The notes under the pieces: generated by a model
What the model saw: only the letters and a program-made list of their open reading frames with translations
Told to the model about the DNA's origin: nothing
The model's database searches: none
Source: Patescibacteria group bacterium
Lineage (GTDB): Bacteria > Patescibacteriota > Minisyncoccia > Phycocordibacterales > VMEP01
Length of the DNA stretch: 32,020 nt
Reading direction: 5' to 3'
Assembly (NCBI GenBank): GCA_038064275.1
Contig: JBBTTL010000005.1
Coordinates: forward strand, 1-32,020
Part shown: one piece after another, positions 3,768 to 28,200 of the stretch
Layout: every line of letters starts with the position of its first letter
Position numbering within the stretch: position 1 is the stretch's first letter
Position numbers and translations under genes: made by a program

Positions 3768-4543
3768 CCAATAAGTATATTATTTATGCCGCGTTTTCTT
3801 TGCTTATCGCTGCATCGCTTTTTTTCGCCGCCAAGATTATCACTGAAATCAAATCATATAGATATATAGGGGGCGGAGTATTGGCAAGCAACGCCATTTC
3901 AGTCAGCGGAGAGGGTGAAGTGTTTGCGGTACCCGACATAGCCACGATAATTTTCTCGGCGGCAAGCCAAGGCAAGACCGTGGCCATGGCGCAGAAAGAA
4001 GCCAGCAAGAAAATTGATGCCGCTCTCGCGTTTTTGAAAAACTCCGGGATTTCCGACAAAGACATAAAAACGACAAACTACAGCGCCCATCCGCGCTATG
4101 AATACAATGAGGTGGTTTGTCTGTCTCTTAATTGTCCGCGTCCTGGCAAGCAAACTCTCGTCGGATATGACGTAATGCAGACTATTTCGGTGAAAGCAAG
4201 GGATACTGATAAGGTGGGCGCTATTCTTGAAGGCTTGGCCAAGGCGGGAATCACTGAAATATCGGGTCCAAATTTCTCAATTGATGACGAGGAAAAACTG
4301 AAAGCCGAAGCGAGGAAATACGCAATCGCCGATGCCAAGGAAAAAGCGGCCGCGCTTGCCGGCGACCTCGGGGTTTCTCTCGTGCGCATTATAAGTTTTT
4401 CCGAGGCGGGAAATTATCCGATTTATTACGCCAAAGCGCTTGAATCAGCCGGCGGAAACGGCGGGGATGTTCTGGCGCCCGAGATTCCGAAAGGGGAGAA
4501 TAAAATCAGCTCCAACGTAACCATTACTTATGAAATCAGGTAA
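3746..4543 (+). CDS. SIMPL/DUF541 family periplasmic protein
   Basis: 265 aa with an N-terminal TM anchor. GYDVMQTISVKARD and EARKYAIADAKEKA..ISSNVTITYEI resemble the SIMPL (26-kDa periplasmic antigen) family. Confidence 0.8.
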   Translation: MEKETLLTNKYIIYAAFSLLIAASLFFAAKIITEIKSYRYIGGGVLASNAISVSGEGEVFAVPDIATIIFSAASQGKTVAMAQKEASKKIDAALAFLKNSGISDKDIKTTNYSAHPRYEYNEVVCLSLNCPRPGKQTLVGYDVMQTISVKARDTDKVGAILEGLAKAGITEISGPNFSIDDEEKLKAEARKYAIADAKEKAAALAGDLGVSLVRIISFSEAGNYPIYYAKALESAGGNGGDVLAPEIPKGENKISSNVTITYEIR

Positions 4544-4551
4544 AAAACAAA

Positions 4552-4962
4552 ATGGGAAATCCGCTTGAAAATAGTTTTTTAGTGCAAGGGGAAGGAATGG
4601 AAGGAGTCGGGACCCCAAAAGAAAAAACAATCAACATAGAAGAAGAAATAGACGAGGCTATGCATAGATTGCAAGGTCTTTTGGATGAGGCGGTTACAAC
4701 ACTTGAAATGGTTTTTGAAAATAAGTTTATTGACGAGGGAGACAAAGAACGACTCTATGTTATTTTAGACAAAGCGGCAACGGAAGCGAACGATTTGATG
4801 AAAGATAAGAAAAGAGACGGCAATGAAATCCTGGAATTGTTGGCGGAAATATCCGAACGCGTTGATATTAATACCGGTATAAAAAATCAATTCAAAGATG
4901 GGAGCGAAAAAATAGAAACGTTTCTGGCCGGAGAAAAAAAAAGAAAGGAGGGAAAGAATTGA
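4552..4962 (+). CDS. hypothetical acidic, probably helical protein
   Basis: 136-aa ORF rich in E/D/K with no recognisable motif. An alternative start lies at 4597. Confidence 0.45.
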   Translation: MGNPLENSFLVQGEGMEGVGTPKEKTINIEEEIDEAMHRLQGLLDEAVTTLEMVFENKFIDEGDKERLYVILDKAATEANDLMKDKKRDGNEILELLAEISERVDINTGIKNQFKDGSEKIETFLAGEKKRKEGKN

Positions 4963-5213: not shown

Positions 5214-5648
5214 TTGAATCTGAAAATAATTGTTTTTTTGCTGGCGTTACTGATTCCCTGGAGCGCATCCGTTGCTTGCGACACAAATCGCGCCGAATGG
5301 ATGCTGATTCACAACACCATCATCACGGGGCAATACCGCGACGTGTTACAGGAAGAAAAGGAATTGTTCGCAAAAACAAAGGAATGTTTCGCGGCGGCGG
5401 AGGGAGAAGAAACAGACAATGGTCACTGCAAAGCGTTCATGGGCGCCAGTATTGATGAAATCGGGCCCAAGAAGAAACAGCTCCTTCAGAAGTTTGAGAA
5501 AGAGGCGGAGGCCATTTGGCGCCTGGGTTGCGCGTCGCTATCCAAAATATCAGAGGAGGTGGAGTTAGCGATTGGGCGACTGAAAGAGTCGATTAAGGAT
5601 TTGGAAAAAACAAAGAGAAGGCTGGAAAGAAAGGAATTTCTAATATAA
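5214..5648 (+). CDS. hypothetical secreted protein or lipoprotein with 4 Cys
   Basis: TTG start with GGAG 7 nt upstream. Signal-peptide-like N-terminus MNLKIIVFLLALLIPWSASVAC. Has its own promoter and intrinsic terminator. Confidence 0.55.
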   Translation: MNLKIIVFLLALLIPWSASVACDTNRAEWMLIHNTIITGQYRDVLQEEKELFAKTKECFAAAEGEETDNGHCKAFMGASIDEIGPKKKQLLQKFEKEAEAIWRLGCASLSKISEEVELAIGRLKESIKDLEKTKRRLERKEFLI

Positions 5649-5690: not shown

Positions 5691-5709
5691 GTACCCTATT
5701 TACACGGGC

Positions 5710-5739
5710 TTGACAAACAGTCGCGTTTATGATTATAAT
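5710..5739 (+). promoter_or_regulatory. consensus sigma70 promoter TTGACA-18-TATAAT
   Basis: -35 at 5710-5715 and -10 at 5734-5739, which implies a 5' UTR of about 90 nt before the ATG at 5837. Confidence 0.6.
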
Positions 5740-5836
5740 ATAGGCAGAATTTTACGACTGTTTTTAGCACATTGAGAGAGAAGTTTTCTGAGGCGGGCGA
5801 TTTTTCCAACAACGTACGAACACACAGGAGGCTCCG

Positions 5837-7171
5837 ATGAGCAGAACAAAACAACACGGGAAAAACAAAGGGAAAGGAAAAAAAGGGGACCATGAGGGGC
5901 GGAAAAAACCGGCGGAGGATAAACCGAGGTATCGGAAACCGCCACGCGAGCGTGGTCCAAAACCGGACTACACGCCGAACGGCGTAGCTGTAGCGAAGGA
6001 GTTGATGTTCGTGTACAACACGAGCGCGCGGCAATTGCTCAACGGCACCATGGACAAGGAGAGGTATAAAATCGGCGACGCCGAGTTTGAGAAAGAAATG
6101 GTGCCGCCCTTCAGGGGCGCCCAAGAGAGTGATTTCCGTTGTGCCGTGAGATTCATCGGCGCGCCGGAAGGACACGAACTTCTTCTTTCTGGCGTGCAAC
6201 CGGGGACACACATTCTCGCCAGCACGCTTTCAAAGGAAGATTTCTTCTCCAGGGTGAAGAGCGTTGAGCTCCAAAGGTCGCTCGCCGCGCTTCACAAGTA
6301 CCTCCGAGGGCACTTGGCGGAAGCGAGCAAGGGGAAAGCAAAAGTCGCTAACCCCAAGCCCGTTGCCAACCACAAGGAAACGACCCCTCCTGTCGTATCA
6401 TCCGACCCGAAACTCATCTGGGACGGGAAGGAGGGGCTCGTGGAAATCGGGGGAATACGTTTCCGTGTTTCCACGGAGGAAGTGAAAGGGCACCCTTTCC
6501 GGGCAGCGCGAGTAGATTTTGCGCCGCAGGGAACGGAACTGGCCGACTTGAGCGGGGCAGACACGTATGTGCCGGTGTCAAGGCTTCACCGGCCGGAGTT
6601 TGTATCGCCCCTCCCAAAGGGAAGCAGGGGATGGGAGACACAAAAGCGCATCTGGAAGTTCCTCCGCGGCCAGTTCGCCAAGGCGGGAATTACCGGAGGG
6701 GCGGCGAAAGCCAAACCTGTTTCTGTTGTGGCAAAACCCAAGCCGAAAGCTAAGAATGTGGAAGACCCTTACAAGGGGTCAACCGATATCGGGCAACTCG
6801 TGTCCGGTTTCTATGGGTACTATGTGCTCGGGGAACATGGCGCGCGAGCACTCGTTCGCGTCAGAAGCCACATGAACAGGGAGAAAAGCAGAGAGCGTGT
6901 TGTCGTGGAGCTCGTCAAATGCGAAGCGGGAAATTTCCTCCGCGGGAAATGCGGGGCCAATACCCACATCCCGCACCCGTGGCTCAAGAAGGATCTTGAG
7001 CAGATAGAGATCAAGGATGGGCCCCGTGCTTCCGACATGACAATGCTGTATGTCTATCTGACGGGCGTCATTGACGTTTATCGGAAGGATGTGTATGCGC
7101 ATGTCGCCGCCACCAGAGGCAAAGGGAAACCCGTGGGTGGCATTCACCCAATGCCCGAAGCCATTCAATAA
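5837..7171 (+). CDS. orphan 444-aa basic protein with three internal repeats
   Basis: ATG preceded by AGGAGG (5826-5831), a consensus promoter upstream and a strong terminator downstream. High G+C. No family recognised. Confidence 0.7.
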   Translation: MSRTKQHGKNKGKGKKGDHEGRKKPAEDKPRYRKPPRERGPKPDYTPNGVAVAKELMFVYNTSARQLLNGTMDKERYKIGDAEFEKEMVPPFRGAQESDFRCAVRFIGAPEGHELLLSGVQPGTHILASTLSKEDFFSRVKSVELQRSLAALHKYLRGHLAEASKGKAKVANPKPVANHKETTPPVVSSDPKLIWDGKEGLVEIGGIRFRVSTEEVKGHPFRAARVDFAPQGTELADLSGADTYVPVSRLHRPEFVSPLPKGSRGWETQKRIWKFLRGQFAKAGITGGAAKAKPVSVVAKPKPKAKNVEDPYKGSTDIGQLVSGFYGYYVLGEHGARALVRVRSHMNREKSRERVVVELVKCEAGNFLRGKCGANTHIPHPWLKKDLEQIEIKDGPRASDMTMLYVYLTGVIDVYRKDVYAHVAATRGKGKPVGGIHPMPEAIQ

Positions 7172-7189
7172 CGCCACGCAATGTGGCAT

Positions 7190-7235
7190 AACCGCGCACG
7201 AACCCAGTTTGGTTCGTTGCGCGGTTTTCTTTTTG
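7190..7235 (+). terminator. intrinsic terminator of the 444-aa gene
   Basis: aaccgcgcacgaacc-cagttt-ggttcgttgcgcggtt followed by ttctttttg. Confidence 0.8.
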
Positions 7236-7250: not shown

Positions 7251-7298
7251 TGACCCCGCAGTAGATCTGTCAGTAGGCAGATTCACTGCGGGGTTGAC
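7251..7298. other. nested imperfect hairpin
   Basis: accccgcagt..(atctg-tcagtagg-cagat)..actgcggggt. Confidence 0.4.
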
Positions 7299-7332
7299 TT
7301 CAAAAATGGACAAGTGTAGTATTCCATCAAAG

Positions 7333-7351
7333 CCCCGCGGGGTGTTTTTTT
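7333..7351 (+). terminator. short GC hairpin plus T7
   Basis: ccccgcgggg-tg-ttttttt. Confidence 0.55.
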
Positions 7352-7714: not shown

Positions 7715-8257
7715 ATGAAGCAAGAAATACAAACTGAACGTAATTGGTACGCTATCCATACCTACGCCGGGTATGAAAACGCGGTTATGCGAAATTTGAA
7801 ACAGCGCATTGAATCTCTCGGCATGGAGGGAAAGATTTTTAACGTTGTCGTTCCGATTGAGAAGAAAATAAAAATCAAGGGCGGCAAGCGCGTGGAAGTG
7901 GAGGAGAAAATTTATCCCGGCTACGTGCTGGTTGATATGGTCGTTGACGACGATTCGTGGTATGTGGTACGAAACACTCCGCGCGTTACCGGATTTGTCG
8001 GCGCCGGCGTCAATCCCGTACCCCTCAACAAAAGCGAGGTGGATGTTCTTTTCAGCAGGATGAAAACAGACACCGCTCGTCACAATATTGACCTTGCCAT
8101 AGGCGAATCAGTTGTGGTTACAGACGGACCGTTTAAAGAACTTGAAGGGAAGATAAATGAGGTGGATGAAGAGCGAGGCAAAGTGAAAGTACTAGTTTCA
8201 ATGTTCGGCCGAGAGACGCCTGTTGAACTGGATTTTCTTCAGGTGAAAAAGATATAA
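7715..8257 (+). CDS. nusG: transcription termination/antitermination factor NusG
   Basis: 180 aa. [15 protein letters not shown] start and a C-terminal KOW ([18 protein letters not shown]). Confidence 0.95.
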
Positions 8258-8407: not shown

Positions 8408-8424
8408 GATTGGCATCGAGAAAC

Positions 8425-8847
8425 ATGGCTAAGAAAATAACCAAAAAAATCAAATTACAGGTGCAGGCCGGCAAAGCCACTCCGGCGCCGCCATTGGGTC
8501 CCGCGCTCGGTCAGGCGGGCGTTAACATCGGCGACTTCGTCACTAAATTTAATGCCGCCACCAAGGATATGGTCGGCAATGTTGTCTCCGTAAAGGTTCG
8601 GGTCTATGAAGACCGAACTTTTGATTTTGTGGTAAAAACTCCGCCGGCATCGGGGCTCATTTTGAAAGCGGCCGGGGTGGAAAAAGGTTCCGGCAAGAAC
8701 ACCATTTCAAAGGCCGGGAAAATTTCCAAAGCCCAAGTGCGCGAAATCGCCGAGACAAAAATGAAGGATTTAACCGCCCATACCGTAGAGCAGGCCATGA
8801 AAATCATTGAGGGAAGCGCCCGAAGTATGGGGATAGAGGTGAAGTAG
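8425..8847 (+). CDS. rplK: 50S ribosomal protein L11
   Basis: [35 protein letters not shown] is a canonical L11 N-terminus. I prefer ATG 8425 over the TTG at 8410 given in the ORF track. Confidence 0.95.
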
Positions 8848-8848
8848 T

Positions 8849-8876
8849 AACTTACAACTTACAACTGACAACAACG
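8849..8876 (+). repeat. heptamer array directly after the rplK stop
   Basis: aacttac aacttac aactgac aacaacg. Confidence 0.6.
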
Positions 8877-8906
8877 TCAAAACCCCGCCTAGGCGGGGTT
8901 TTGACG
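8875..8906. terminator. 15-bp perfect hairpin after rplK
   Basis: cgtcaaaaccccgcc-ta-ggcggggttttgacg. Confidence 0.6.
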
Positions 8907-8941
8907 TTCGGGGGCTGACTTTTATTTTCTCGAAAATACAT

Positions 8942-8947
8942 TATAAT
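8942..8947 (+). promoter_or_regulatory. TATAAT 7 nt before the dcd ATG; no SD
   Basis: tataat-tcttgac-ATG. Confidence 0.45.
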
Positions 8948-8954
8948 TCTTGAC

Positions 8955-10070
8955 ATGACTTTGACTTTTTCGGGGCACGGCGCGTTTTCCTCGCAAGACA
9001 TTGAAACTCTTATACAGCAAGGGGCGATTATAAACGCAGAGAAAGAGCATATAAGCCCCGCCTCTCTTGACCTCACGATTTCCGACGAAGCATATCGCGT
9101 GGAGGAAATTTTCTTGCCGAAAACAGGGGAGACAGTACGCGACGTTCTTAAGTCTATAGAAGTATTTCCCCACGATTTTAGTAATCCATTGGAGAGGGAC
9201 GTAACCTACCTTTTTCTTTTAAACGAAAAAATTTCGTTGCCGGAAGATGTCTACGGATATTGCAATCCAAAATCCACGACAGGAAGAAACGATGTCCACG
9301 CGCGCGTGATTGCCGACGGGGTTTCGCGCTACGATGCCGTTACCCCAAAAGGATTCCGCGGAGAGCTGTGGGTCGCCGTTACCCCAAAATCATTTCCTAT
9401 TAAACTGGCGAAAGGCATGCCACTTAGCCAATTGCGCTTGTTTAATAAAGACACCCGCTTCACAGAAGGGGAATGTAAAGACGCGCTTGAAACATACGGG
9501 CTTCTGTGGGACCTAGAGGGGAGGAAATATTCTTATGAGGAAATTAAAATCCGCGACAACGATGGCTCCATCATTCTCACCCTTGACCTGTCGCAGGACA
9601 TTGCGGGATATGAGTGCCACGGGTCAAACAAAGTACTCGATTTTTCAAAAGGCGCGCAATCACATAATCCGGCGGGTTTCTTTGAACGCATCCGCATAGA
9701 CAGAAAAAGAATCCATCTCAAGAAAGGAAGTTTTTATGTTCTCTCCTCGTGCGAAGCCGTTCGCGTCCCGCCGGATCTTACCTGCGAGATGGCGCCGATG
9801 GACGAGCGAAGCGGCGAATTCCGTTCTCATTATGCGGGATTTATTGATCCTGGCTGGGGATGGGGGAAAAACGGAGAAGGGAAAGGGCGTCCGCTCACCC
9901 TTGAAGTGCGTCCGTTTGAAGACATCGTCATCCGTCACGGTCAGCCGATTGGAAAAATAAAATTTGAGCGGGTCACGCAGATTCCGAACATGTTGTATGA
10001 CACAAAGGCGAGCAATTATCTTGCGCAGACGGGGCCGAAACTTTCAAAGCATTTCAAGGAACTTGCATAA
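8955..10070 (+). CDS. dcd: 2'-deoxycytidine 5'-triphosphate deaminase, long (about 370 aa) DCD form
   Basis: 371 aa. PASLDLT, GYCNPKSTTGRNDV and HYAGFIDPGWG resemble the dCTP deaminase/dUTPase-fold family. Sits next to dut. Confidence 0.72.
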   Translation: MTLTFSGHGAFSSQDIETLIQQGAIINAEKEHISPASLDLTISDEAYRVEEIFLPKTGETVRDVLKSIEVFPHDFSNPLERDVTYLFLLNEKISLPEDVYGYCNPKSTTGRNDVHARVIADGVSRYDAVTPKGFRGELWVAVTPKSFPIKLAKGMPLSQLRLFNKDTRFTEGECKDALETYGLLWDLEGRKYSYEEIKIRDNDGSIILTLDLSQDIAGYECHGSNKVLDFSKGAQSHNPAGFFERIRIDRKRIHLKKGSFYVLSSCEAVRVPPDLTCEMAPMDERSGEFRSHYAGFIDPGWGWGKNGEGKGRPLTLEVRPFEDIVIRHGQPIGKIKFERVTQIPNMLYDTKASNYLAQTGPKLSKHFKELA

Positions 10071-10113: not shown

Positions 10114-10139
10114 AAAAAAAGCCCCGCATTGCGCAGGGC
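10114..10139 (-). terminator. intrinsic terminator readable on the minus strand
   Basis: The plus strand reads aaaaaaa-gccccgcattgcgcagggc, so the minus strand has a hairpin followed by T7. It lies just beyond the stop of the minus-strand tmk fragment. Confidence 0.5.
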
Positions 10140-10169
10140 CGTCTCCTACATCCTTATAAGAGATGCTTA

Positions 10170-10340
10170 AGATTTCTTTTTTTCCACGATGTCCTGTTGC
10201 CCGCGCTTTACGTCAAACGCGTCGGGATTATCGTCAAGGTAAAGGGCGAGGCCGTATGGGCCGAATTCCTTTTCCAACATCCCTGCGACCTGATACGCTC
10301 TCTGCCTTAATGTGGGGTGTACGAATCGCGTTCGCGAAGT
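10170..10340 (-). pseudogene. tmk: thymidylate kinase internal fragment (remnant)
   Basis: 57-codon open frame: TRFVHPTLRQRAYQVAG..PYGLALYLDDNPDAFDVKRGQQDIVEKKKS*. It parallels the Tmk segments DRF..S.AYQG and PD.t.yLd..pe....R.....DR.E. No P-loop N-terminus or credible start. Confidence 0.3.
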
Positions 10341-10455
10341 TCATCTTGAGCTTGCCAAAGAAAACAATTGGCCCGTCGTAAAAGCTAACGGCACGCCGGA
10401 AGAAGTAGAGGAACGCATTTGGCAAAAAGTAGCTCCTTACTTCTCTTTTGTTTAA
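10294..10455 (+). pseudogene. tmk: thymidylate kinase C-terminal fragment (remnant)
   Basis: NRVREVHLELAKENNWPVVKANGTPEEVEERIWQKV parallels the E. coli Tmk C-terminus ([33 protein letters not shown]). Upstream frame closed by TGA at 10291. Followed by an intrinsic terminator. Confidence 0.4.
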
Positions 10456-10469
10456 TCAAATTGTAGCAT

Positions 10470-10490
10470 CCGGCCCTATGGCCGGTTTTT
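10470..10490 (+). terminator. intrinsic terminator after the plus-strand tmk fragment
   Basis: ccggcc-ctat-ggccgg followed by tttttctttaatttttttt. Confidence 0.7.
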
Positions 10491-12714: not shown

Positions 12715-13209
12715 ATGTCGAGCAAGAAATGCCGCGTAAAACCGACCGATCTCCAGTGGGACTGCGCGATGCGGGTCCTGAAAAAGGTCCGCCCGCAGCA
12801 GACGCTCCACCTCTGGAACGACCCCGCCATCACCTGCGATATGTTCTTTCGCTTAAGCCGGGAGATTCGCCAGATCACATTAACACCTCAACCAGTCTGT
12901 GGCGATAAAGAGGTACCGGCGACCATAGAACAACGGATTGATGGAACTGGCTTGATTTATTATGTGACCGAAATCAAAGAGGTCTTGCCGTTTGAGGAAC
13001 AAGTGCTTTGTTTTCTCCATGAGCTCGCCCACATCGCCGTTTGGAAAGGAGAGTTTATACTTCCTTCGACGTGGAAAGAAGACGACGTCGAGTGGTTCGT
13101 GGAGCTCCTCGCCGTGCAGTACCTTGAGACCTGCGATTACTATGTATACTCGAGATATCTCCAGTATTTCCCAATCGCGTATACTAAGCATCTGCTCGCC
13201 ACCCTGTGA
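12715..13209 (+). CDS. hypothetical protein with HExxH motif (putative small zinc metallopeptidase-like)
   Basis: 164 aa. AAGGAGG at 12703-12709 lies 5 nt before the ATG. FLHELAHIAVW with acidic residues downstream. Terminator overlaps the stop. Higher G+C than its neighbours. Confidence 0.55.
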   Translation: MSSKKCRVKPTDLQWDCAMRVLKKVRPQQTLHLWNDPAITCDMFFRLSREIRQITLTPQPVCGDKEVPATIEQRIDGTGLIYYVTEIKEVLPFEEQVLCFLHELAHIAVWKGEFILPSTWKEDDVEWFVELLAVQYLETCDYYVYSRYLQYFPIAYTKHLLATL

Positions 13210-15724: not shown

Positions 15725-18700
15725 ATGAATAATCCTCTAGATAACAAAAAGTCTAAAGTGACGGAGAGAGAAGAAGAGGTTCTCAAATATTGGCGGGACA
15801 GGAAAATTTTTGAAAAAACTCTCAACCAAACAAAAAAGGGCAAGCCTTTCGTATTTTACGACGGGCCGCCTTTCGCCACCGGTCTGCCGCATTATGGTCA
15901 CATTCTTACAGGCACCATCAAAGACGTTATTCCGCGATACCAAACGATGCGCGGGCGGTATGTCAGGCGCGAGTGGGGCTGGGACTGTCACGGATTACCG
16001 CTTGAAAATATTATTGAGCAAGAACTTGACCTCAAGCACAAAAAAGACATTGAAGAGTTCGGCGTTGGAAAATTTAATTCTGCCGCGGCAAAAGCAGTTC
16101 TGCGCTACGAAGCCGACTGGAAAGAAACAATTCCCAAAACTGGGCGTTTTGTGGATATGGACAATCCTTACAAGACTATGGATTCCAAATATACCGAATC
16201 GGTCTGGTGGTCTTTCAAAACACTCTACGACAAAAAACTTATTTACGAGGGCTACAAGATAATGTTGATTTGCCCGCGCTGTGAGACATCGCTTGCCCAG
16301 AGCGAGGTTGCGGGAAGCTATCAAGATGTCACGGATATTTCGGTTACCGTGAAATTTGAACTCACTAGTTCGCTCGATACCGATATACCCGCCCGACTTC
16401 GCTTGGACGAAGTCCAGGCGGACGGGCGAATGAACGCGAACGATACGAATAGTACGAATGGAGAAAAAATATTTTTATTGGCATGGACCACGACACCGTG
16501 GACCTTGCCCGGCAACACTGCGATTGCGGTGAATCCTAATATTGAATACGCGCTCATTGAAAGCAAAGAAAACGATGAATCTAAAAATGGCAAATTTATT
16601 GTTGCCAAAGAAAGAATTGAATTTTTGAAGATAAAACACTCCCTAATTAAAACAATAAAAGGGAAAGAATTAGTCGGCAAGACGTATAAACCGCTTTTTG
16701 ATTACTACGCCAAGACCGATATAAAAAATAAAGAGAACGCTCGCCCGACCCGTCCGAACGGATCATCCGGGCGGACTGAACACGACGAGTCGTTCGGGCG
16801 GGGATGGAAGATATACGCCGGAGATTTCGTTACCACCGAGACCGGTACGGGTATTGTGCATATCGCCCCGGCGTTCGGCGAAGACGATATGAATTTGCGC
16901 AACCAGTTCAATCTGCCGTTTATCCAACATGTCGGAATGGACGGCAGAATGAAAGATGAGATGTCCCATTTCCGCGGGCTTTACGTAAAACAAAAAGGCG
17001 ATACCCAATCCACCGACATTGAAATAATAAAACACTTGGCGCGCGAGGGACTGTTGTTCGCCAAAGAAAAAATCGTCCACCCCTATCCGCTCTGCTGGCG
17101 TTGCGACACACCCCTTTTAAATTACGCCACCTCGTCGTGGTTCGTCAAAGTTACGGCCATCAAAAAAAAGCTAATCAAAGAAAATAAAAAAATCACCTGG
17201 GTTCCTTCGCACATAAAAGAAGGGCGTTTCGGCAAGTGGCTCGAAGGTGCCAAAGACTGGGCCATATCGCGAACGCGCTTCTGGGGCGCGCCACTTCCGG
17301 TCTGGCGCTGTGATTCTTGTAAAAAAATAAAAGTAATAGGCGGGCTTAAAGAGCTCAAAGAGGGCAGGTCCGCTAATAATTCTTATATAGCAATGCGCCA
17401 CGGGCAGTCGAAGAGCAATGTCTACGGCGTTAACGATTCTTTCGGAGACCCTGAAAATCATTTGACCGAAAAAGGAAGGGAAGAAGTCGCCTATTCTCTA
17501 AAAGCGCTTTCTAAAAAAGGGATTACGCGCATTGTCTCTTCCCCCCTTATTCGGGCCAAAGAAAGCGCGGAAATTGTGGCGGAAAAATTGGGAATCCCCA
17601 TTGAAAAAATAGAAGTGGATAAAAGATTCATTGAATTTAATCACAGTACCGAATGTCAAGGCAAAAAAGCGGGGTTTCCTGAAACCGACCCGTCGGAAAG
17701 AGAGGATTTTTATCTGCGCCACAAAGACGGAGAGAATCATGACGATGTGCGCGCCCGGGTGATGGAAGGACTATTTGATCTTGAGAAAAAATATAAAGGC
17801 GAAACCATATTGATTGTTACACACGGCTCTCCGATGTGGATGCTTATTTCAGGCGCGGTACACTTAAGCGACAAAGAAACCCTTAAATATCGCGAGGATA
17901 GAAAAAAAGACAAAGGCCCCTATTTCATTTCAAACGCCGAGGTAAAGCCGCTTAACTTTACCTTCTTTCCGCACAACAGTCGCTTCACACTTGATTTTCA
18001 TCGCCCATATATAGACGAAGTTGAGTTTCCTTGTTCTTGTGGCGGCGCCATGGAGCGTATAAAAGACGTGTTTGATTGCTGGTTTGAGTCCGGCTCAATG
18101 CCCTACGGGCAACTTCACTATCCTTTTGAAAATAAGAAATTGTTTAAGGAAAATTTCCCGGCTGATTTTATCGCCGAAGGACTGGACCAGACGCGGGGAT
18201 GGTTTTATAGCATGCTGGTATTAAGCGTGGCACTTTTCGGAAAAACACCTTACCGACGGGTGATTGTGAACGGGCTTATCCTAGCAGAAGACGGCCAGAA
18301 AATATCCAAGCGTCTCAAGAATTATTCGGATGTGGCGGAGGTGATTGAAAAATACGGCGCTGATTCTCTTCGCTATTATCTTTTGTCATCGCCGGTAGTG
18401 CGCGGCGAGGATGTCGCTTTTTCCGAAAAGGGGGTGGCGGAAATCGGGAGAAAAATAATTTCACGGCTGGATAATGTTTATGTTTTTTACGAAACCTACG
18501 CCCATGAATTGAAAAGCGAGAAAAGCGTTGCTAAAACTAAAAATATTTTAGACCAATGGATACTGGCGCGTTTGGGCGAACTTCGTCAGGATATTACTTC
18601 CGGCATGGATAAATATGAACTTGATACAGCCACCCGGGGCATTGATAAGTTTATTGACGATTTATCTACATGGTATTTGCGCCGCTCCCGCGAGCGTTTC

Positions 18701-19369
18701 AAGGGTGACAACAAAGAAGACAAAGAATACGCCCTTTCCACCACCCGCTGTGTTCTTTTTGAATTATCAAAATTGATTGCCCCATTTATGCCATTTATGG
18801 CCGAAGATATTTATCAGAAAGTAAAAGGAGAAAAAAACAAAGAAAGCGTGCACCTTGAGTTGTGGCCGGAAGCGCGGAAGGTTGATAAAAAACTTATAGA
18901 GAAAATGGAAAATACTCGGCATTTAGTTGAACTGGCTCTTGCCGCGCGGGCGGAGAATGGAATCAGGGTTCGTCAACCACTAAGAAGCTTAAAAGTGAAA
19001 AGTGAAAAGTTAAAGGAAGTTTATTCAGAACTCATAAAAGACGAAGTGAATGTTAAAGAGATTATTGGTGGTGTAAATTTAGAAACGGAAGTAGAGTTCG
19101 ATATAACAATTACTCCGGAGCTGAAAAAAGAAGGACAATTGCGCGAACTTATCCGCAATATCCAGGATTTGCGCAAGAAAGAAAAACTGACCCCGCACGA
19201 CATTGCGGTACTTCTTGTCCAAACAAGCGCACACGGAAGAGAATTTATTGGTGAATTTGAGTCGCAATTGAAAAAAGCGACACTCTTGAAGGAAATCAGT
19301 TTTGGGGAAACAGATGGGGGTCCGATTAACATAGACGAATTTTCATTTATACTTAAGCTCGAAAAATAA
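15725..19369 (+). CDS. ileS: isoleucine--tRNA ligase, type 2, with embedded histidine-phosphatase domain and two short inserts
   Basis: 1214 aa. GLPHYGHIL (HIGH), LLAWTTTPWTLPGN and GTGIVHIAPAFGEDD (CP1 editing), DQTRGWFY, GQKISKRLKN (KMSKS). Confidence 0.95.
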   Translation: MNNPLDNKKSKVTEREEEVLKYWRDRKIFEKTLNQTKKGKPFVFYDGPPFATGLPHYGHILTGTIKDVIPRYQTMRGRYVRREWGWDCHGLPLENIIEQELDLKHKKDIEEFGVGKFNSAAAKAVLRYEADWKETIPKTGRFVDMDNPYKTMDSKYTESVWWSFKTLYDKKLIYEGYKIMLICPRCETSLAQSEVAGSYQDVTDISVTVKFELTSSLDTDIPARLRLDEVQADGRMNANDTNSTNGEKIFLLAWTTTPWTLPGNTAIAVNPNIEYALIESKENDESKNGKFIVAKERIEFLKIKHSLIKTIKGKELVGKTYKPLFDYYAKTDIKNKENARPTRPNGSSGRTEHDESFGRGWKIYAGDFVTTETGTGIVHIAPAFGEDDMNLRNQFNLPFIQHVGMDGRMKDEMSHFRGLYVKQKGDTQSTDIEIIKHLAREGLLFAKEKIVHPYPLCWRCDTPLLNYATSSWFVKVTAIKKKLIKENKKITWVPSHIKEGRFGKWLEGAKDWAISRTRFWGAPLPVWRCDSCKKIKVIGGLKELKEGRSANNSYIAMRHGQSKSNVYGVNDSFGDPENHLTEKGREEVAYSLKALSKKGITRIVSSPLIRAKESAEIVAEKLGIPIEKIEVDKRFIEFNHSTECQGKKAGFPETDPSEREDFYLRHKDGENHDDVRARVMEGLFDLEKKYKGETILIVTHGSPMWMLISGAVHLSDKETLKYREDRKKDKGPYFISNAEVKPLNFTFFPHNSRFTLDFHRPYIDEVEFPCSCGGAMERIKDVFDCWFESGSMPYGQLHYPFENKKLFKENFPADFIAEGLDQTRGWFYSMLVLSVALFGKTPYRRVIVNGLILAEDGQKISKRLKNYSDVAEVIEKYGADSLRYYLLSSPVVRGEDVAFSEKGVAEIGRKIISRLDNVYVFYETYAHELKSEKSVAKTKNILDQWILARLGELRQDITSGMDKYELDTATRGIDKFIDDLSTWYLRRSRERFKGDNKEDKEYALSTTRCVLFELSKLIAPFMPFMAEDIYQKVKGEKNKESVHLELWPEARKVDKKLIEKMENTRHLVELALAARAENGIRVRQPLRSLKVKSEKLKEVYSELIKDEVNVKEIIGGVNLETEVEFDITITPELKKEGQLRELIRNIQDLRKKEKLTPHDIAVLLVQTSAHGREFIGEFESQLKKATLLKEISFGETDGGPINIDEFSFILKLEK
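16426..16461 (+). repeat. four in-frame 9-nt ACGAAT-type units inside ileS
   Basis: gcgaatgaa cgcgaacga tacgaatag tacgaatgg, encoding RMN AND TNS TNG. Confidence 0.6.
17372..17989 (+). other. histidine phosphatase superfamily (PGAM-like) domain inserted within ileS
   Basis: YIAMRHGQSKSN, TEKGREEV, IVSSPLIRAKESAEIV, DGENHDDVRARV and ILIVTHGSPM give the R-H-R-E-H catalytic pattern of branch-1 histidine phosphatases. In frame on both sides with IleRS sequence. Confidence 0.8.
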
Positions 19370-20649: not shown

Positions 20650-22566
20650 ATGGATACGACCCCAGACGAAAAAGACCCAATAGATAAGTTATCCGAACGC
20701 CTGTATCGCAATGACGGCATGAAGACCCGGCATCGGACGGGAATGCTTCACCGCGCTTCATATGATGCGAATAAAGGGTGGGCCAATGAATATGTTGAGA
20801 AGGAAAGCAAGGTAGCGAGGCCCACTTCATCGTTATTTAAAAAAATCTTTATCGGTTCGGTTCTGTTCTTTGTCGTTTCGTTTGGTTTTGCTTTCTATAT
20901 GTTTTATGGAGGGGGAAATGTCGTTTCAAACGAGAAAATTGACCTTTCCATTTTTGGTCCGGCCTTTACCGAAGGGGGCAATGAGTTTGAGCTTGAGTTT
21001 GATGTTAAAAATGGCAATAGCCAGGCCCTTCAATATGCCGATTTGGTTATTGAGTATCCAAAAGGGGCCACATTAGAGGGAGATAAGAACACCGTGCGCG
21101 TTAGAAAATTTTTAGGGGAACTCCCGGCCGGCGAGTCTAGAGCCGAGCGCGCCAAAATCGTGCTTTTTGGCGAGGAAGGAAGCGAACGTACCGTGAAAGC
21201 AATTCTTGAGTATAGAGTCTCCGGATCAAACGCCATATTCGTCAAAGAAGCCGGTTATCTTGTCCACATTAAATCAAGCCCGCTTTCTCTCTCGGTTAAT
21301 TCTCTGAAAGAGACAAATTCAAATCAGGATTTTGTTCTTAATATAGAAACGCTGGCCAACGCCGACAAGATAATACGGAATATTTTGCTCAAAGTTGAAT
21401 ATCCGGCGGGGTTTGTATTTAGAAATGCGAGCATCCCTTCTTCGTATGGTAACAATACTTGGCGTTTGGGCGCCCTTGATAAGGGAAAAAATAAAACCAT
21501 CGCTATTCATGGCATTATGCAGGGGGAAGACGGGGAAGAACGTTCGTTTAGAATTTATGTCGGGACAGAAAATGAAAAAGACACGGGAGAGATTGGTGTA
21601 ATTTATAGCTCATTTCTCCAAACAATCGCCATCAAGCGGCCCTTTCTTGAGACGAAGCTTTTGGTTGACGGTGTTTTAGGAACTGAATATGTCGTTGGGT
21701 CAACAGCGCCAATAGCCGGCGAAGTGAATTGGATTAACAATTTGCCAAACAGGGTGCTTGACGCGGAAATTTACGTTCGGATTATAGGAGACATATTGGA
21801 TAAATCGTCTGTGGTGGCACCCGCAGGGTTTTTCAGTTCAAGCGACAACACCATAACATGGAACAAAGACACAAGTTCGGAGCTTGCCCAGCTTGAGGGC
21901 GGCGACAGCGGCAAATTTCCTTTCACTTTCAAAGTCTTGCCCCTTTTCTCCGGAAACAGGACCCTCTTTAGAAATCCGATGATTACCATTGAAGTGGGGG
22001 TACGAGGCAGGCGACTTCTTGAAACGAACGTTCCGGAGCAGATTTCCGCGTCGGAGAAAAAAATCATTAAAATAAGCTCAAACGCGCAGCTTAGTGTCCG
22101 AGCGTTTTATTACAGCGGCCCATTCAAGAATACCGGCGGTATTCCTCCGCGGGCCGATCGCGAGACCTCATATGCTATCGTTTGGACGGTCCTAAATTCT
22201 TCCAACGATTTATCAAAAGCGCAAGTTAAAACAAAATTGCCGACTTACGCGCGCTGGCTAGACTCTGTCAGTCCCCAAGGAGAAGACGTTACTTTTAACC
22301 CGGAGACAAGAGAAGTGACTTGGGACTTGAGGCGCGTTGACGCGGGGGTGGGGATAGAAACCGCTCTACGCCAGGCGGCCTTTCAAGTCGGATTTACTCC
22401 ATCAATAAGCCAAGTGGGAAAACAGGCGGAACTAACGGGGGAAGCCTTGTTTAGCGGCGTTGATTCATTTACTAACGCCGAAATCAATTTCACAAGAAGC
22501 GCCCCAACGACCAATCTAATCAATGAGACCAACATCAAGATAGGAGATGATATTATAGTTAAGTAG
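20650..22566 (+). CDS. hypothetical membrane-anchored protein with a large beta-rich extracytoplasmic region
   Basis: 638 aa. One N-terminal TM (IFIGSVLFFVVSFGFAFYMFYGG), then repeated beta-sandwich-like segments (..LEFDVKNGNSQALQYADLVIEYPKGA.., ..FVLNIETLANADKIIRNILLKVEYPAGF..). Confidence 0.7.
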   Translation: MDTTPDEKDPIDKLSERLYRNDGMKTRHRTGMLHRASYDANKGWANEYVEKESKVARPTSSLFKKIFIGSVLFFVVSFGFAFYMFYGGGNVVSNEKIDLSIFGPAFTEGGNEFELEFDVKNGNSQALQYADLVIEYPKGATLEGDKNTVRVRKFLGELPAGESRAERAKIVLFGEEGSERTVKAILEYRVSGSNAIFVKEAGYLVHIKSSPLSLSVNSLKETNSNQDFVLNIETLANADKIIRNILLKVEYPAGFVFRNASIPSSYGNNTWRLGALDKGKNKTIAIHGIMQGEDGEERSFRIYVGTENEKDTGEIGVIYSSFLQTIAIKRPFLETKLLVDGVLGTEYVVGSTAPIAGEVNWINNLPNRVLDAEIYVRIIGDILDKSSVVAPAGFFSSSDNTITWNKDTSSELAQLEGGDSGKFPFTFKVLPLFSGNRTLFRNPMITIEVGVRGRRLLETNVPEQISASEKKIIKISSNAQLSVRAFYYSGPFKNTGGIPPRADRETSYAIVWTVLNSSNDLSKAQVKTKLPTYARWLDSVSPQGEDVTFNPETREVTWDLRRVDAGVGIETALRQAAFQVGFTPSISQVGKQAELTGEALFSGVDSFTNAEINFTRSAPTTNLINETNIKIGDDIIVK

Positions 22567-26155: not shown

Positions 26156-26629
26156 ATGGTAAAAAATGAAGGAAACGATGAATCAGTGGCGGGAAGCGTG
26201 TATGAAATCGGATATTTGGCGACACCCTCAATCGTGCAAGATAAAATTCACGAGGTGTCGGAAAAAATTAACGACCTCATAAAGAAAGCGGGAGGAACCG
26301 TTATAACCGATGAAGCACCCAAGCTTCGTGAGCTTGCTTATCCTATGGAGAAAATAGTTGCCCACAAGAAAGAAATTTTTTCAAGCGCGTATTTTGGCTG
26401 GGTAAAATTTGAAATTGTTCGGGAGAAGATAAATTCTCTCGCCAAAGAGGTTGAAAGAGAAGAAAATATAATTCGATATCTCCTCATTTCTACTGTGCGG
26501 GAAAATACCATTGCTTCTCGCCGCCCCGTGGCAAGGCAAGGGGGAGAAGTTAGGCGCAAAGAGACAAAGGGGCCCAAAATGAGCGATGAGGAGATTGAAA
26601 AGACAATTGAGCAACTAATTACACAATAA
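26156..26629 (+). CDS. rpsF: 30S ribosomal protein S6 (extended)
   Basis: YEIGYLATPS start and position in the conserved rpsF-ssb-rpsR arrangement. Has N- and C-terminal extensions. Confidence 0.82.
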   Translation: MVKNEGNDESVAGSVYEIGYLATPSIVQDKIHEVSEKINDLIKKAGGTVITDEAPKLRELAYPMEKIVAHKKEIFSSAYFGWVKFEIVREKINSLAKEVEREENIIRYLLISTVRENTIASRRPVARQGGEVRRKETKGPKMSDEEIEKTIEQLITQ

Positions 26630-27431: not shown

Positions 27432-27478
27432 TTGGAAGCTCTTACTTGGAAGCTCGGCTTCCAAGTAAGAGCTTCCAA
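27432..27478. repeat. perfect 22-bp-arm palindrome between convergent rpsR and efp
   Basis: ttggaagctcttacttggaagc-tcg-gcttccaagtaagagcttccaa. Confidence 0.85.
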
Positions 27479-27586
27479 GTTCTATATTCTCAAAAATATT
27501 ATAATGAAAGGATAATGGGGACAGCCACTACTGTCTCCTTCGCGCGAATGAGTTATTGGCGTAACTTTGTTGATTGTAAATTTTTT

Positions 27587-27614
27587 GTCGTAAGTCGTAG
27601 GTTGTTTGTTGTTA
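27587..27614 (-). repeat. heptamer array directly 3' of the efp stop
   Basis: Plus strand reads gtcgtaa gtcgtag gttgttt gttgtta. In efp mRNA sense this is taacaac aaacaac ctacgac ttacgac. Confidence 0.5.
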
Positions 27615-27615
27615 G

Positions 27616-28200
27616 TTACTTACTTACTCGCTCCACGTATTCTCCCGTTTCGGTGTTGACACGGATGATGTCGCCCACGTTTACGAAAAATGGGACCGTA
27701 ACGCTTGTTCCTGTTTCAAGTATGGCGGATTTGCCGCCGCCAGAGGCGGTATTGCCTTTTATTCCCGGCGGAGCATCTTTGATAGCAAGCTCCACTTTAA
27801 TAGGAAGCTTGATACGAATAATTTTTTGGTCGTCTTCGTCGTCTCCGGTGAAAGTGAGAGCGTCCACCATGGTGTTTCCTTTTAAAAATTTTGCCGGCTC
27901 ACCGATGAGATTCTCCTCCAAAGAGAAACGTCTGGATGGGTCATTTATTTCGCAAAACCAGAACTCACCGCGATTGTGGTATAAAAATTTAATTTTCTTT
28001 GAACCGATATCGGCCTCCGTTACTTTGTCTGAAGCATGAAAAGTGGCCGAAACAACCCTGCCCGAAAGGAGACTTCTTAACTTAGTCTGGTTCTGGGGTT
28101 TCCTTTGCTGGGTGCGGGCCACGTGAGATTCAAGCACCTCAAAAGGTTCATTATTGTAGAGGATGTATTTTCCCCCGCGTATCTCGTTGTATTCCAACAT
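27616..28200 (-). CDS. efp: elongation factor P
   Basis: 194 aa with a three-domain EF-P pattern. The loop at the usual PGKG position is atypical (see findings). Confidence 0.9.
   Translation of the reverse strand: MLEYNEIRGGKYILYNNEPFEVLESHVARTQQRKPQNQTKLRSLLSGRVVSATFHASDKVTEADIGSKKIKFLYHNRGEFWFCEINDPSRRFSLEENLIGEPAKFLKGNTMVDALTFTGDDEDDQKIIRIKLPIKVELAIKDAPPGIKGNTASGGGKSAILETGTSVTVPFFVNVGDIIRVNTETGEYVERVSK

Follow-up and report, generated by a model that had tools for sequence, protein, structure and literature searches.

The Target Gene and Its Expression Unit

Herein, we analyze a 32,020-nt stretch of DNA from a Patescibacteria group bacterium (contig JBBTTL010000005.1 of GenBank assembly GCA_038064275.1), referred to below as the window, and focus on one of its genes, the target gene, which encodes a basic protein of 444 aa. 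The order of genes in the window is folD, ZIP, DoxX, SIMPL, two unannotated small open reading frames (ORFs), the target gene, secE, nusG, rplK, dcd, dut, glyA, argS, ileS and further genes. A first-pass annotation of the window had placed the target ORF on the plus strand, and we reproduced its coordinates, length and ATG start (Table 1). All nine peptide strings quoted there were also found in the translation, with the cores of the repeats at residues 100, 221 and 353, the helices at 152, 272 and 403, and the linkers at 165, 289 and 426. As demonstrated below, the protein is assembled from three homologous modules and represents a new and unannotated family, which is confined, within the sampling, to Patescibacteria/Paceibacterota.

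The first-pass annotation took the target for a real gene with strong expression signals, and we agree: the consensus promoter, the AGGAGG sequence and the terminator were all confirmed, and the gene is conserved. The terminator had escaped a consensus scan because its stem is bulged. Promoters matching 10–12 of the 12 consensus positions are situated 65–107 nt upstream of the homologous genes at ten loci (L002, L004, L007, L009, L011, L012, L014, L017, L019 and L020), each with a 5' untranslated region (5' UTR) of 62–104 nt, a GGAG-type Shine-Dalgarno sequence and a terminator of its own. Such a terminator follows the position of the 3' hairpin (see below) at every homologous locus, and the most distant loci preserving the layout encode proteins only 17–25% identical to the window protein. 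Given the recurrent promoter/Shine-Dalgarno/terminator layout, the gene is a monocistronic unit, conserved and geared to strong expression, and the target protein is probably very abundant. We take the antisense ORFs found inside the gene (5696–6211 and 6779–7189, both on the minus strand) to be by-products of its high G+C content, which leaves fewer stop codons.

Table 1. Features of the target gene and protein, and positions of the 3' hairpin at homologous loci (UTR, untranslated region; CDS, coding sequence; pI, isoelectric point; pLDDT, predicted local distance difference test; HMM, hidden Markov model; MFE, minimum free energy).
Feature	Position	Strand	Remarks
Sigma-70-type promoter, TTGACA-18-TATAAT	5710..5739	+	12/12 consensus positions
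5' UTR	5746..5836	+	~90 nt; start inferred from the -10 box
Motif GCACATTG	5767-5774	+	in 5' UTR; CATTG-type, partly complementary to the loop of the 3' hairpin
Shine-Dalgarno sequence, AGGAGG	5826-5831	+	5 nt ahead of ATG
Target CDS	5837..7171	+	ATG start; 444 aa + stop; pI 9.9, net charge +29
N-terminal region, residues 1-58	5837..6010	+	disordered, polybasic, net +11; pLDDT 30-39
Short linear motif RGPKPDYTPN, residues 39-48	5951..5980	+	consensus G-P-K-P-D/N-Y/F-T-P-K/R; closes the polybasic tract
Module A, residues 59-165	6011..6331	+	pI 8.1; pLDDT 76-87; module HMM E 5e-64; homologous to B and C
Linker 1, residues 166-185	6332..6391	+	K/P/A-rich, net +3; pLDDT <50; weakly conserved (alignment A1)
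Module B, residues 186-287	6392..6697	+	pI 9.8; most conserved module of the family; pLDDT 95-97 (B+C model); in 54 family sequences
Linker 2, residues 288-309	6698..6763	+	K/P/A-rich, net +5; pLDDT <50 in both models
Module C, residues 310-416	6764..7084	+	pI 8.9; pLDDT 93-98 (B+C model)
C-terminal tail, residues 417-444	7085..7168	+	mostly disordered; ending ...HPMPEAIQ common to close relatives
Hairpin GCCAC-GCAAU-GUGGC	7173..7187	+	2 nt past the stop codon; without a U-tract of its own
Intrinsic terminator	7190..7235	+	15-bp G+C-rich stem with one bulge (7190-7226), then U-run; MFE -33.4 kcal/mol, z -3.9
GCAAU hairpin, L001	9073-9087
GCAAU hairpin, L004	7166-7180
GCAAU hairpin, L007	3127-3145
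GCAAU hairpin, L012	6653-6675
GCAAU hairpin, L014	2824-2838
GCAAU hairpin, L017	4616-4628
GCAAU hairpin, L019	5584-5604
GCAAU hairpin, L020	2145-2163

Modular Organization of the Target Protein

Three diverged repeats had been suggested for the protein, and the threefold repeat is real, being supported both by comparisons of module profiles and by a common order of elements in the AlphaFold2 model. In the single sequence, modules A and B are the only pair to exceed chance, with a Smith–Waterman score of 78 (z 11.5) that none of 500 shuffles reached, and the A–C and B–C comparisons give a z of ~2. Module C attains significance only when family profiles are used. Profiles of 13 sequences, aligned in the register of the first-pass annotation, returned P 6.5e-5 for A–B and ~1e-3 for both A–C and B–C. 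With family-wide module profiles (25 sequences for A, 54 for B and 37 for C), hhalign yielded P values of 5.8e-10 (A–B), 8.2e-11 (A–C) and 4.6e-9 (B–C) over 94–99 columns, at 96–97% probability.

The AlphaFold2 model of the full-length protein comprises three folded regions (residues ~59–165, 186–287 and 310–416, pLDDT 75–90), with pLDDT below 50 at residues 1–58, 165–185, 288–309 and 417–444. A second model, limited to modules B and C and built on a 38-sequence alignment, reached a pLDDT of about 95–97 per module with a disordered linker in between. The predicted template modelling scores (pTM) of the two models, 0.33 and, for B+C, 0.53, correspond to no fixed arrangement of the domains. Because high confidence within each module is combined with a disordered linker and a pTM of 0.53 in the B+C model, the modules are predicted to behave as independent beads on a disordered linker.

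All three modules share the same order of elements: a helix of 4 residues leads into an antiparallel meander of three strands, after which come the long conserved loop (AP-x-G-T/H-x-L...G), strand 4, which is short, and two helices, the first short and the second of 19–30 residues. What had been described from the translation as a strand-like core corresponds to strand 3, the conserved loop and strand 4, and the helix-like motif falls within the long C-terminal helix of each module. The proposed linkers coincide with the segments of pLDDT below 50 between and after the modules. The count of three modules held, whereas the size of 115–130 aa ascribed to them did not, since it included linkers; the folded unit is ~105 aa long.

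The N-terminus, previously noticed as polybasic and disordered, indeed contains 18 K+R against 7 D+E in residues 1–58 (pI 10.4). Net charges amount to +11 for this tail, +3 and +5 for the linkers, and +1, +4 and +3 for modules A, B and C, respectively. Conservation resides in the modules and the linkers are variable; all 19 invariant columns of alignment A1 are within residues 195–319, mostly in module B. Purifying selection is strong on the modules and not on the linkers.

Distribution and Architectures of the Family

The target had been called an orphan, which turned out to be incorrect. A word-indexed search found 12 close relatives with 73–34% identity, and when 1.84 billion cluster representatives were searched exhaustively with a profile, 60 clusters (at 50% identity) passed E <1e-3, 28 of them with E <1e-30. 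Over the whole family, identity to the window protein spans 73–17%. Scans of genome contigs and of metagenome contigs gave one locus and two loci, respectively, and the only named relative comes from a metagenome-assembled genome of Candidatus Paceibacterota. Searching metagenomic proteins and their neighborhoods revealed an unannotated family with a recurrent position beside gene-expression operons. A literature search found nothing on this protein family.

Three architectures were observed. The A–B–C arrangement is found in the window protein and its close relatives; B–C, the commonest one, makes proteins of 235–322 aa; and A–B is followed by a tail of 150–250 further residues, where similarity to the modules is weak. 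The trivalency that had been suggested for the window protein is therefore no family trait, as the majority of relatives carry two modules (B–C). According to the module HMMs, A, B and C are distinct subtypes that diverged anciently.

Many full-length members possess an N-terminal polybasic tract ending in G-P-K-P-D/N-Y/F-T-P-K/R, a motif with a single occurrence in the six-frame translation of the window. Of 69 family sequences, 25 fit the strict pattern of this GPKP-type motif and others carry looser variants; several of the sequences without the motif are truncated gene calls. Locus L001 (ENA ERZ1286166 contig_2760) deserves a comment here: folD, dcd, thyX and SHMT are each split into two or three ORFs on this contig, and the target homologue P0006 is N-terminally truncated. 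The split genes most likely indicate assembly frameshift errors rather than pseudogenes.

Comparison with Known Families and Folds

The first-pass annotation recognized no family in the target protein, and we likewise obtained no match in any library scanned and no clear match to a known family in sequence or fold searches. Pfam gave no reproducible match for the window protein, 66 relatives and the module consensus sequences. Scans of the target protein and its family against NCBIfam, PHROGs and PADLOC gave none, and a PDB sequence search with family profiles A1 and A3 was equally negative. We rejected DUF5559 (PF17714), which appeared in one of 67 members with 14.9 bits (E 0.025) against a gathering threshold of 25 bits; the matching region, residues 130–210, runs from the helix across linker 1 into the beginning of module B.

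Fold searches of PDB with the three-module and B+C models, and of BFVD with the B+C model, returned no match at E <1e-3; all Foldseek matches had an E of at least 0.017 and a template modelling score (TM) of at most 0.33. Judged against PDB and BFVD, the module fold is best called unclassified. Among the weak matches, repeats I–II of PUR-alpha (PDB 8cht, 3k44 and 5fgo; Whirly-like fold) came first in both PDB searches, followed by the double-stranded RNA-binding domains (dsRBDs) of MLE, DHX9 and DRB4. PUR-alpha binds single-stranded DNA and RNA by means of three tandem repeats, each composed of a four-stranded sheet and a helix. Two target modules align to repeats I and II in a compatible order of secondary-structure elements, with E 0.037–0.2, probability ≤0.30, TM ≤0.26 and a root-mean-square deviation (rmsd) of 17–21 Å over the two modules; repeat III (5fgo) gave TM 0.33 and an rmsd of 4.4 Å over 55 columns, with E 2.1. 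Nevertheless, the differences are substantial. A PUR repeat has ~65–70 aa against ~105 aa in a target module, which adds a turn at its N-terminus, the long conserved loop and, preceding the long helix, a short one; moreover, two PUR repeats intertwine as one domain, while modules B and C are predicted to be separate beads. Homology to PUR repeats, which the ranking and visual inspection had suggested, was tested and rejected at the sequence level, as hhalign gave P 0.03–0.5 and a probability of no more than 1.5% in inconsistent registers, with a PUR profile that was shallow (four sequences; the human PURA sequence among them is identical to 8cht). PurA of Pfam matched neither the window protein nor the 66 relatives nor the module consensus sequences. 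Overall, the resemblance to PUR is at most topological, consisting of four strands followed by a helix.

In the case of the dsRBDs, an alpha-beta-beta-beta-alpha order is loosely shared with the target modules, whose N-terminal helix, however, has just 4 residues. There was no Pfam dsrm match, and the Foldseek alignments covered 40–60 residues with E 0.15–1.8 and rmsd of 4–9 Å or more.

Another parallel concerns ribosomal protein bS1, which is also a string of small homologous domains on flexible linkers in lineage-dependent number: 1–6 domains, with 3–4 in the Candidate Phyla Radiation (CPR) (PMC9297842), compared with two to three or more modules in the target family. A further shared point is that the target gene is located among translation genes. 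The analogy is architectural only, for bS1 is acidic while the target is strongly basic, and the folds differ. No S1 match was found in the target or its relatives and no OB fold among the structural matches; a sporadic tRNA_anti-codon OB match appeared in one of 67 members (E 0.048).

A Covarying Hairpin in the 3' UTR

A small hairpin with a GCAAU loop is found at nine non-duplicate loci, 2–15 nt after the stop codon and ahead of the terminator (Table 1). Its stem is the same in the window, L001 and L004, and the stems seen across the loci are GCCAC, ACCAC, GGCAC, CCAC, UGUGGUGU, GGUGGCGU and UUUCGC; in L015 the loop is GCAA, a plain GNRA tetraloop. In an alignment of seven distinct loci, the loop GCAAT is invariant and the stems differ, yet 92% of cells are paired, versus 20–53% when the 3' partners are slid by 1–3 columns. 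Compensatory double changes are present in five of the seven pairs, and the covariation score of 0.857 (0.347 in shuffles) was reached by none of 500 shuffles. Covariation in the stem speaks for a structure formed in RNA (or in a single strand) and against a site in duplex DNA. The hairpin is present in each of the two synteny classes of the gene, beside secE-nusG-rplK and beside infB-rbfA. At the two-module loci L002 and L011, another small hairpin with a GAAA or AAAUUG loop occupies this place, and the third two-module locus, L009, has none.

In phage lambda, the arginine-rich peptide of the N protein recognizes the boxB hairpin. The parallel is purely one of analogy: the target protein has a basic N-terminal peptide, and its RNA has a 5-bp stem with a GNRA-like pentaloop beside a terminator. 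The target loop GCAAU is, however, GNRA + U and not GNRNA, and the hairpin is situated in the 3' UTR of the gene itself. Read-through control is unlikely as a general role because the next gene is convergent in the infB-rbfA class.

We also considered pairing between the two UTRs. Exact complementarity of 10–11 nt between the 5' and 3' UTRs exists in L002 (~7966–7976 with 8952–8962) and L011 (~2962–2971 with 3976–3985), the motifs being AGCAATTTCC / GGAAATTGCT, and the UTRs of these two-module loci are dissimilar outside the complementary motifs. In the window, the match is 7 nt long (CACATTG / CAATGTG, 5767–5774 with 7179–7185) and marginal, being equaled by 16 of 300 shuffles. As a family-wide trait, such pairing was rejected: L002 and L011 are the only loci where it reaches significance, the window and L007 are borderline, and L012, L014 and L017 lack it.

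Base Composition and mRNA Structure of the Target Gene

The target gene has a G+C content of 56% against ~45% in its flanks, and its G+C content at third codon positions (GC3) is 0.65 against ~0.49. At every locus examined, the GC3 of the target homologue exceeds that of all neighbors: 0.56 versus 0.16–0.25 in L012, 0.68 versus 0.26–0.43 in L017, 0.56 versus 0.25–0.40 in L014, 0.69 versus 0.43–0.64 in L009, 0.66 versus 0.36–0.61 in L002, and 0.55 versus 0.32–0.50 in L004. The codon bias extends over nearly all amino acids and is strongest in the choice of C-ending over U-ending codons and of AAG over AAA. In its preference for C-ending codons (0.64), the target ranks first among 29 window genes, with 0.52 for the next gene, 0.42 for rplK and 0.21 for rpsF.

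Two explanations of this excess fall short. Recent horizontal transfer fails because the excess is seen in every lineage, at a conserved position, and expression-linked codon bias is incomplete as a full explanation, since rplK and rpsF lack the bias. Compared with synonymous-codon shuffles, the native coding sequence folds more stably in the window (z -5.1), L012 (5001–6647, z -6.5), L017 (2992–4614, z -4.1) and L002 (8001–8948, z -2.2), while 13 neighboring genes gave z from +1.4 to -2.7 in the same test. These values suggest selection on the target mRNA itself, for stability or structure.

Genomic Neighborhood of the Target Gene

In the window and in L001, L002, L004–L008, L009–L011 and L017/18, the target gene is the immediate upstream neighbor of secE-nusG-rplK and shares its strand. 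In L014, the order is unchanged except that a 125-aa ORF separates the target homologue from secE. Within this class, protein identity falls to 29–34% or lower, and the upstream neighbor varies (SIMPL, an AAA_14 ATPase or small ORFs). In a second synteny class, the gene is located downstream of infB-rbfA, either directly (L012/13) or after a 94-aa ORF (L019). Such core gene-expression company in both contexts is suggestive. We regard it as weak to moderate evidence, because there is no co-transcription and translation genes are dense in these genomes.

At the approximately six loci that we read, rplA-rplJ-rplL does not follow rplK, and there is no rplA within the 32-kb window. The uL1 protein is known to be missing from a subgroup of Parcubacteria (PMC9297842).

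Proposed Function and Rival Explanations

We propose that the target is an abundant, lineage-specific, cytoplasmic beads-on-a-string protein that binds nucleic acids in a multivalent manner, a proposal whose chances we put slightly below even. The basic tail and linkers would provide non-specific electrostatic affinity for the phosphate backbone, and the mildly basic modules would add further contacts and possibly specificity. With two to three or more tethered modules, one molecule could hold several sites simultaneously, and such multi-site holding might result in bridging, condensing or chaperoning of nucleic acid. The 3' UTR hairpin could serve as a cognate or autoregulatory site or as an mRNA-stabilizing element. 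Because the gene adjoins secE-nusG-rplK or infB-rbfA and carries a covarying GCAAU hairpin in its own 3' UTR, we lean slightly towards RNA (ribosome, rRNA or mRNA associated) over DNA as the ligand, although the two seem almost evenly balanced. The charge, the location, the weak fold analogies to RNA/single-stranded DNA-binding modules and the 3' hairpin are consistent with multivalent nucleic-acid binding and do not amount to a demonstration of it. Ala/Lys-rich extensions have been reported on a ribosomal protein, uS19, of Parcubacteria (PMC9297842), a habit of the lineage that also favors the proposal.

Several observations weigh against this proposal. The abundance is derived from sequence signals only, and rplK and rpsF are without codon bias, so that the bias of the target may have another cause. 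Searches of Pfam, NCBIfam, PHROGs, PADLOC, PDB sequences and Foldseek revealed no homology to any known nucleic-acid-binding domain, and the modules themselves are merely mildly basic (pI 8.1–9.8). The GCAAT loop is not exclusive to the target, as it is also found in an ordinary terminator (window 10120–10140, minus strand). Finally, the target has its own promoter and terminator, so its adjacency to secE-nusG-rplK is not co-transcription, and translation genes are frequent in such small genomes anyway.

The first-pass annotation had likened the protein to histone H1 and nucleoid proteins, and the strongest rival explanation follows the same line: the target may be a nucleoid-associated, DNA-compacting protein analogous to H1, Hc1 and HupB/Hlp, with the modules acting as extra DNA-binding or oligomerization units. 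In H1, chlamydial Hc1 and mycobacterial HupB/Hlp, Lys/Ala/Pro-rich segments bind and bridge double-stranded DNA, and the characterized bacterial proteins with K/A/P low-complexity segments are mostly DNA-binding nucleoid proteins. The nucleoid reading has to be taken seriously as a rival, given how typical K/P/A-rich segments are of H1/Hc1/HupB-like proteins. Like these proteins, AlgP and the C-terminal tail of HupB/Hlp included, the target is very basic (pI 9.9, net +29), has disordered K/P/A-rich segments in its tail and linkers (pLDDT <50) and is presumably abundant. Very-high-expression signals would suit a chromatin-like protein, as would the multivalent architecture. The presence of such segments is, however, a compositional trait and not homology. 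The basic low-complexity segments of the target are short (20–58 aa) and tether folded modules, in contrast to long repeat tails or arrays, and the predicted alpha/beta modules, with their three-strand meander and long helix, are neither a winged helix nor an HU-type globular domain. No Linker_histone, Hc1, HU/IHF or other DNA-binding Pfam match was obtained for the window protein and 66 relatives, NCBIfam gave no H1 or Hc1 match, and no H1 or HU structure was among the fold matches, so the resemblance suggested at first does not extend to homology. Moreover, the neighbors are translation/transcription genes and not replication or partition genes, and the co-inherited element, whose stem covaries, behaves like a hairpin in RNA and unlike a conserved site in duplex DNA. 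We therefore consider the nucleoid reading rather unlikely.

Alternatively, the target could be a protein–protein scaffold or adaptor, in which the modules bind protein partners, the conserved GPKPDYTP motif docks onto the ribosome, RNA polymerase/NusG or Sec, and the basic linkers are mere spacers. A conserved short linear motif within an otherwise variable disordered tail, a flexible multi-module design, conserved adjacency to secE-nusG-rplK and the lack of a recognizable nucleic-acid-binding fold would all fit such a role. A scaffold does not need strong positive charge, however; no partner is identifiable, the modules are unlinked to any known interaction domain, and the strict motif is present in just 25 of 69 sequences. 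We judge a scaffold improbable.

The composition of the gene raises the question of horizontal acquisition or mobile cargo, with the gene forming a G+C-rich island that has no core role in the host. The G+C and GC3 excess over the flanks and the short complementary motifs flanking the gene at some loci would be in keeping with such an origin. Yet the excess is present in every lineage examined, with host G+C of 38–47% and proteins ~17–35% identical to that of the window, and the gene keeps the same chromosomal position in those lineages, which is the opposite of recent transfer followed by amelioration. There is no integrase, transposase or tRNA nearby and no PHROGs or PADLOC match, so a cargo gene appears highly improbable. 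As for a spurious or decaying ORF, to which we assign next to no probability, the truncated or frameshifted homologues P0005 and P0006 are in its favor, but the damaged ones are on contigs with many split housekeeping genes (L001), which indicates assembly errors, and the ORFs are otherwise intact over ~60 clusters, with conserved modules, confident AlphaFold2 domains and conserved expression signals. In effect, both a foreign origin and a spurious ORF can be dismissed.

Returning to multivalent nucleic-acid binding, it is tempting to combine the observations into one specific scenario, which, taken as a whole, is a long shot. The target would then be an unrecognized RNA-binding factor with a new fold, which recognizes GNRA-type (GCAAU) loops, including its own 3' hairpin, and controls its own mRNA. 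It would be confined to a Parcubacteria/Paceibacterota lineage in which rplK is not followed by rplA and which possibly lacks uL1, and would rank with the most abundant cellular proteins. Its association with the ribosome or mRNA, through two to three or more tethered modules, would make it a basic functional analogue of bS1 or an RNA chaperone. The stability or 3'-end formation of its own mRNA would be under its control, and the G+C-rich, structured coding sequence would be part of that design.

Patescibacteria, or CPR bacteria, account for a large share of bacterial diversity and have reduced ribosomes, and very few of their lineage-specific proteins have been characterized. The target gene carries the strongest expression signals of its neighborhood, has kept its place beside core gene-expression operons even between deeply diverged lineages, and its product contains a domain without a sequence or structural relative in the libraries searched. 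In general terms, this is a new domain family of a familiar kind: basic, modular and probably nucleic-acid-binding. Unexpected are the covarying GCAAU hairpin, the gene-specific bias in G+C content and structure, and the conserved place beside secE-nusG-rplK. If the target is indeed an abundant organizer of RNA or DNA, it would fill a gap in how minimal cells package and handle nucleic acids and would define a new nucleic-acid-binding fold. The GCAAU-loop hairpin offers a concrete candidate ligand, and the persistent bias is an unusual evolutionary signature in itself.

Other Features of the Window

Between the target terminator and the -35 box of secE, there is a 9-bp inverted repeat, CCCCGCAGT ... 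ACTGCGGGG (7253–7261 / 7285–7293), of which L001 has an identical copy, and none was noticed at the more distant loci. Immediately after the secE promoter (TTGACT-17-TAGTAT, 7294–7322) come a small G+C hairpin and a U-run (~7329–7351), an element that looks like a leader terminator or attenuator ahead of secE-nusG-rplK. Similar elements are present in L002, L004, L007 and L011, those of L002, L004 and L011 being more distinct than that of the window. A tRNA scan of the window found none, and an Rfam scan at gathering thresholds gave 0 matches.

Nucleotide-metabolism genes (dcd, dCMP deaminase, thyA/thyX, dut and tmk) come after rplK (window 8410–10070), as they do at the homologous loci read. 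The strong minus-strand terminator at 10120–10140 consists of an 8-bp stem, a GCAAT loop and a U-run, and its counterpart in L001 (12033–12053, minus strand) follows thyX. In the window, no intact minus-strand gene is found at 10150–10480; thyX (along with tmk) has apparently disappeared or decayed in the interval between dcd and dut.

Pfam recognized neither of the two ORFs directly upstream of the target gene, 4552–4962 (136 aa) and 5214–5648 (144 aa), whose place is taken by different small ORFs in related loci; Pfam matches are also lacking for 20650–22566 (638 aa) and 27446–28039 (197 aa), all four being on the plus strand. A further ORF of 164 aa without a Pfam match (12715–13209, plus strand) contains an HExxH motif (HELAH) and is equipped with a terminator and its own Shine-Dalgarno sequence, GGAGG; with a GC3 of 0.65, it equals the target.

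The isoleucyl-tRNA synthetase (15725–19369, plus strand, 1214 aa) has a His_Phos_1 domain inserted in its catalytic domain at residues 556–719, and the same insertion is found in L002, L005 and L007. Finally, ribosomal protein S6 (26156–26629, plus strand) is 157 aa long, and its Pfam S6 match ends at residue 111, which leaves a C-terminal extension. This is in line with the CPR-specific extensions of ribosomal proteins that have been reported.

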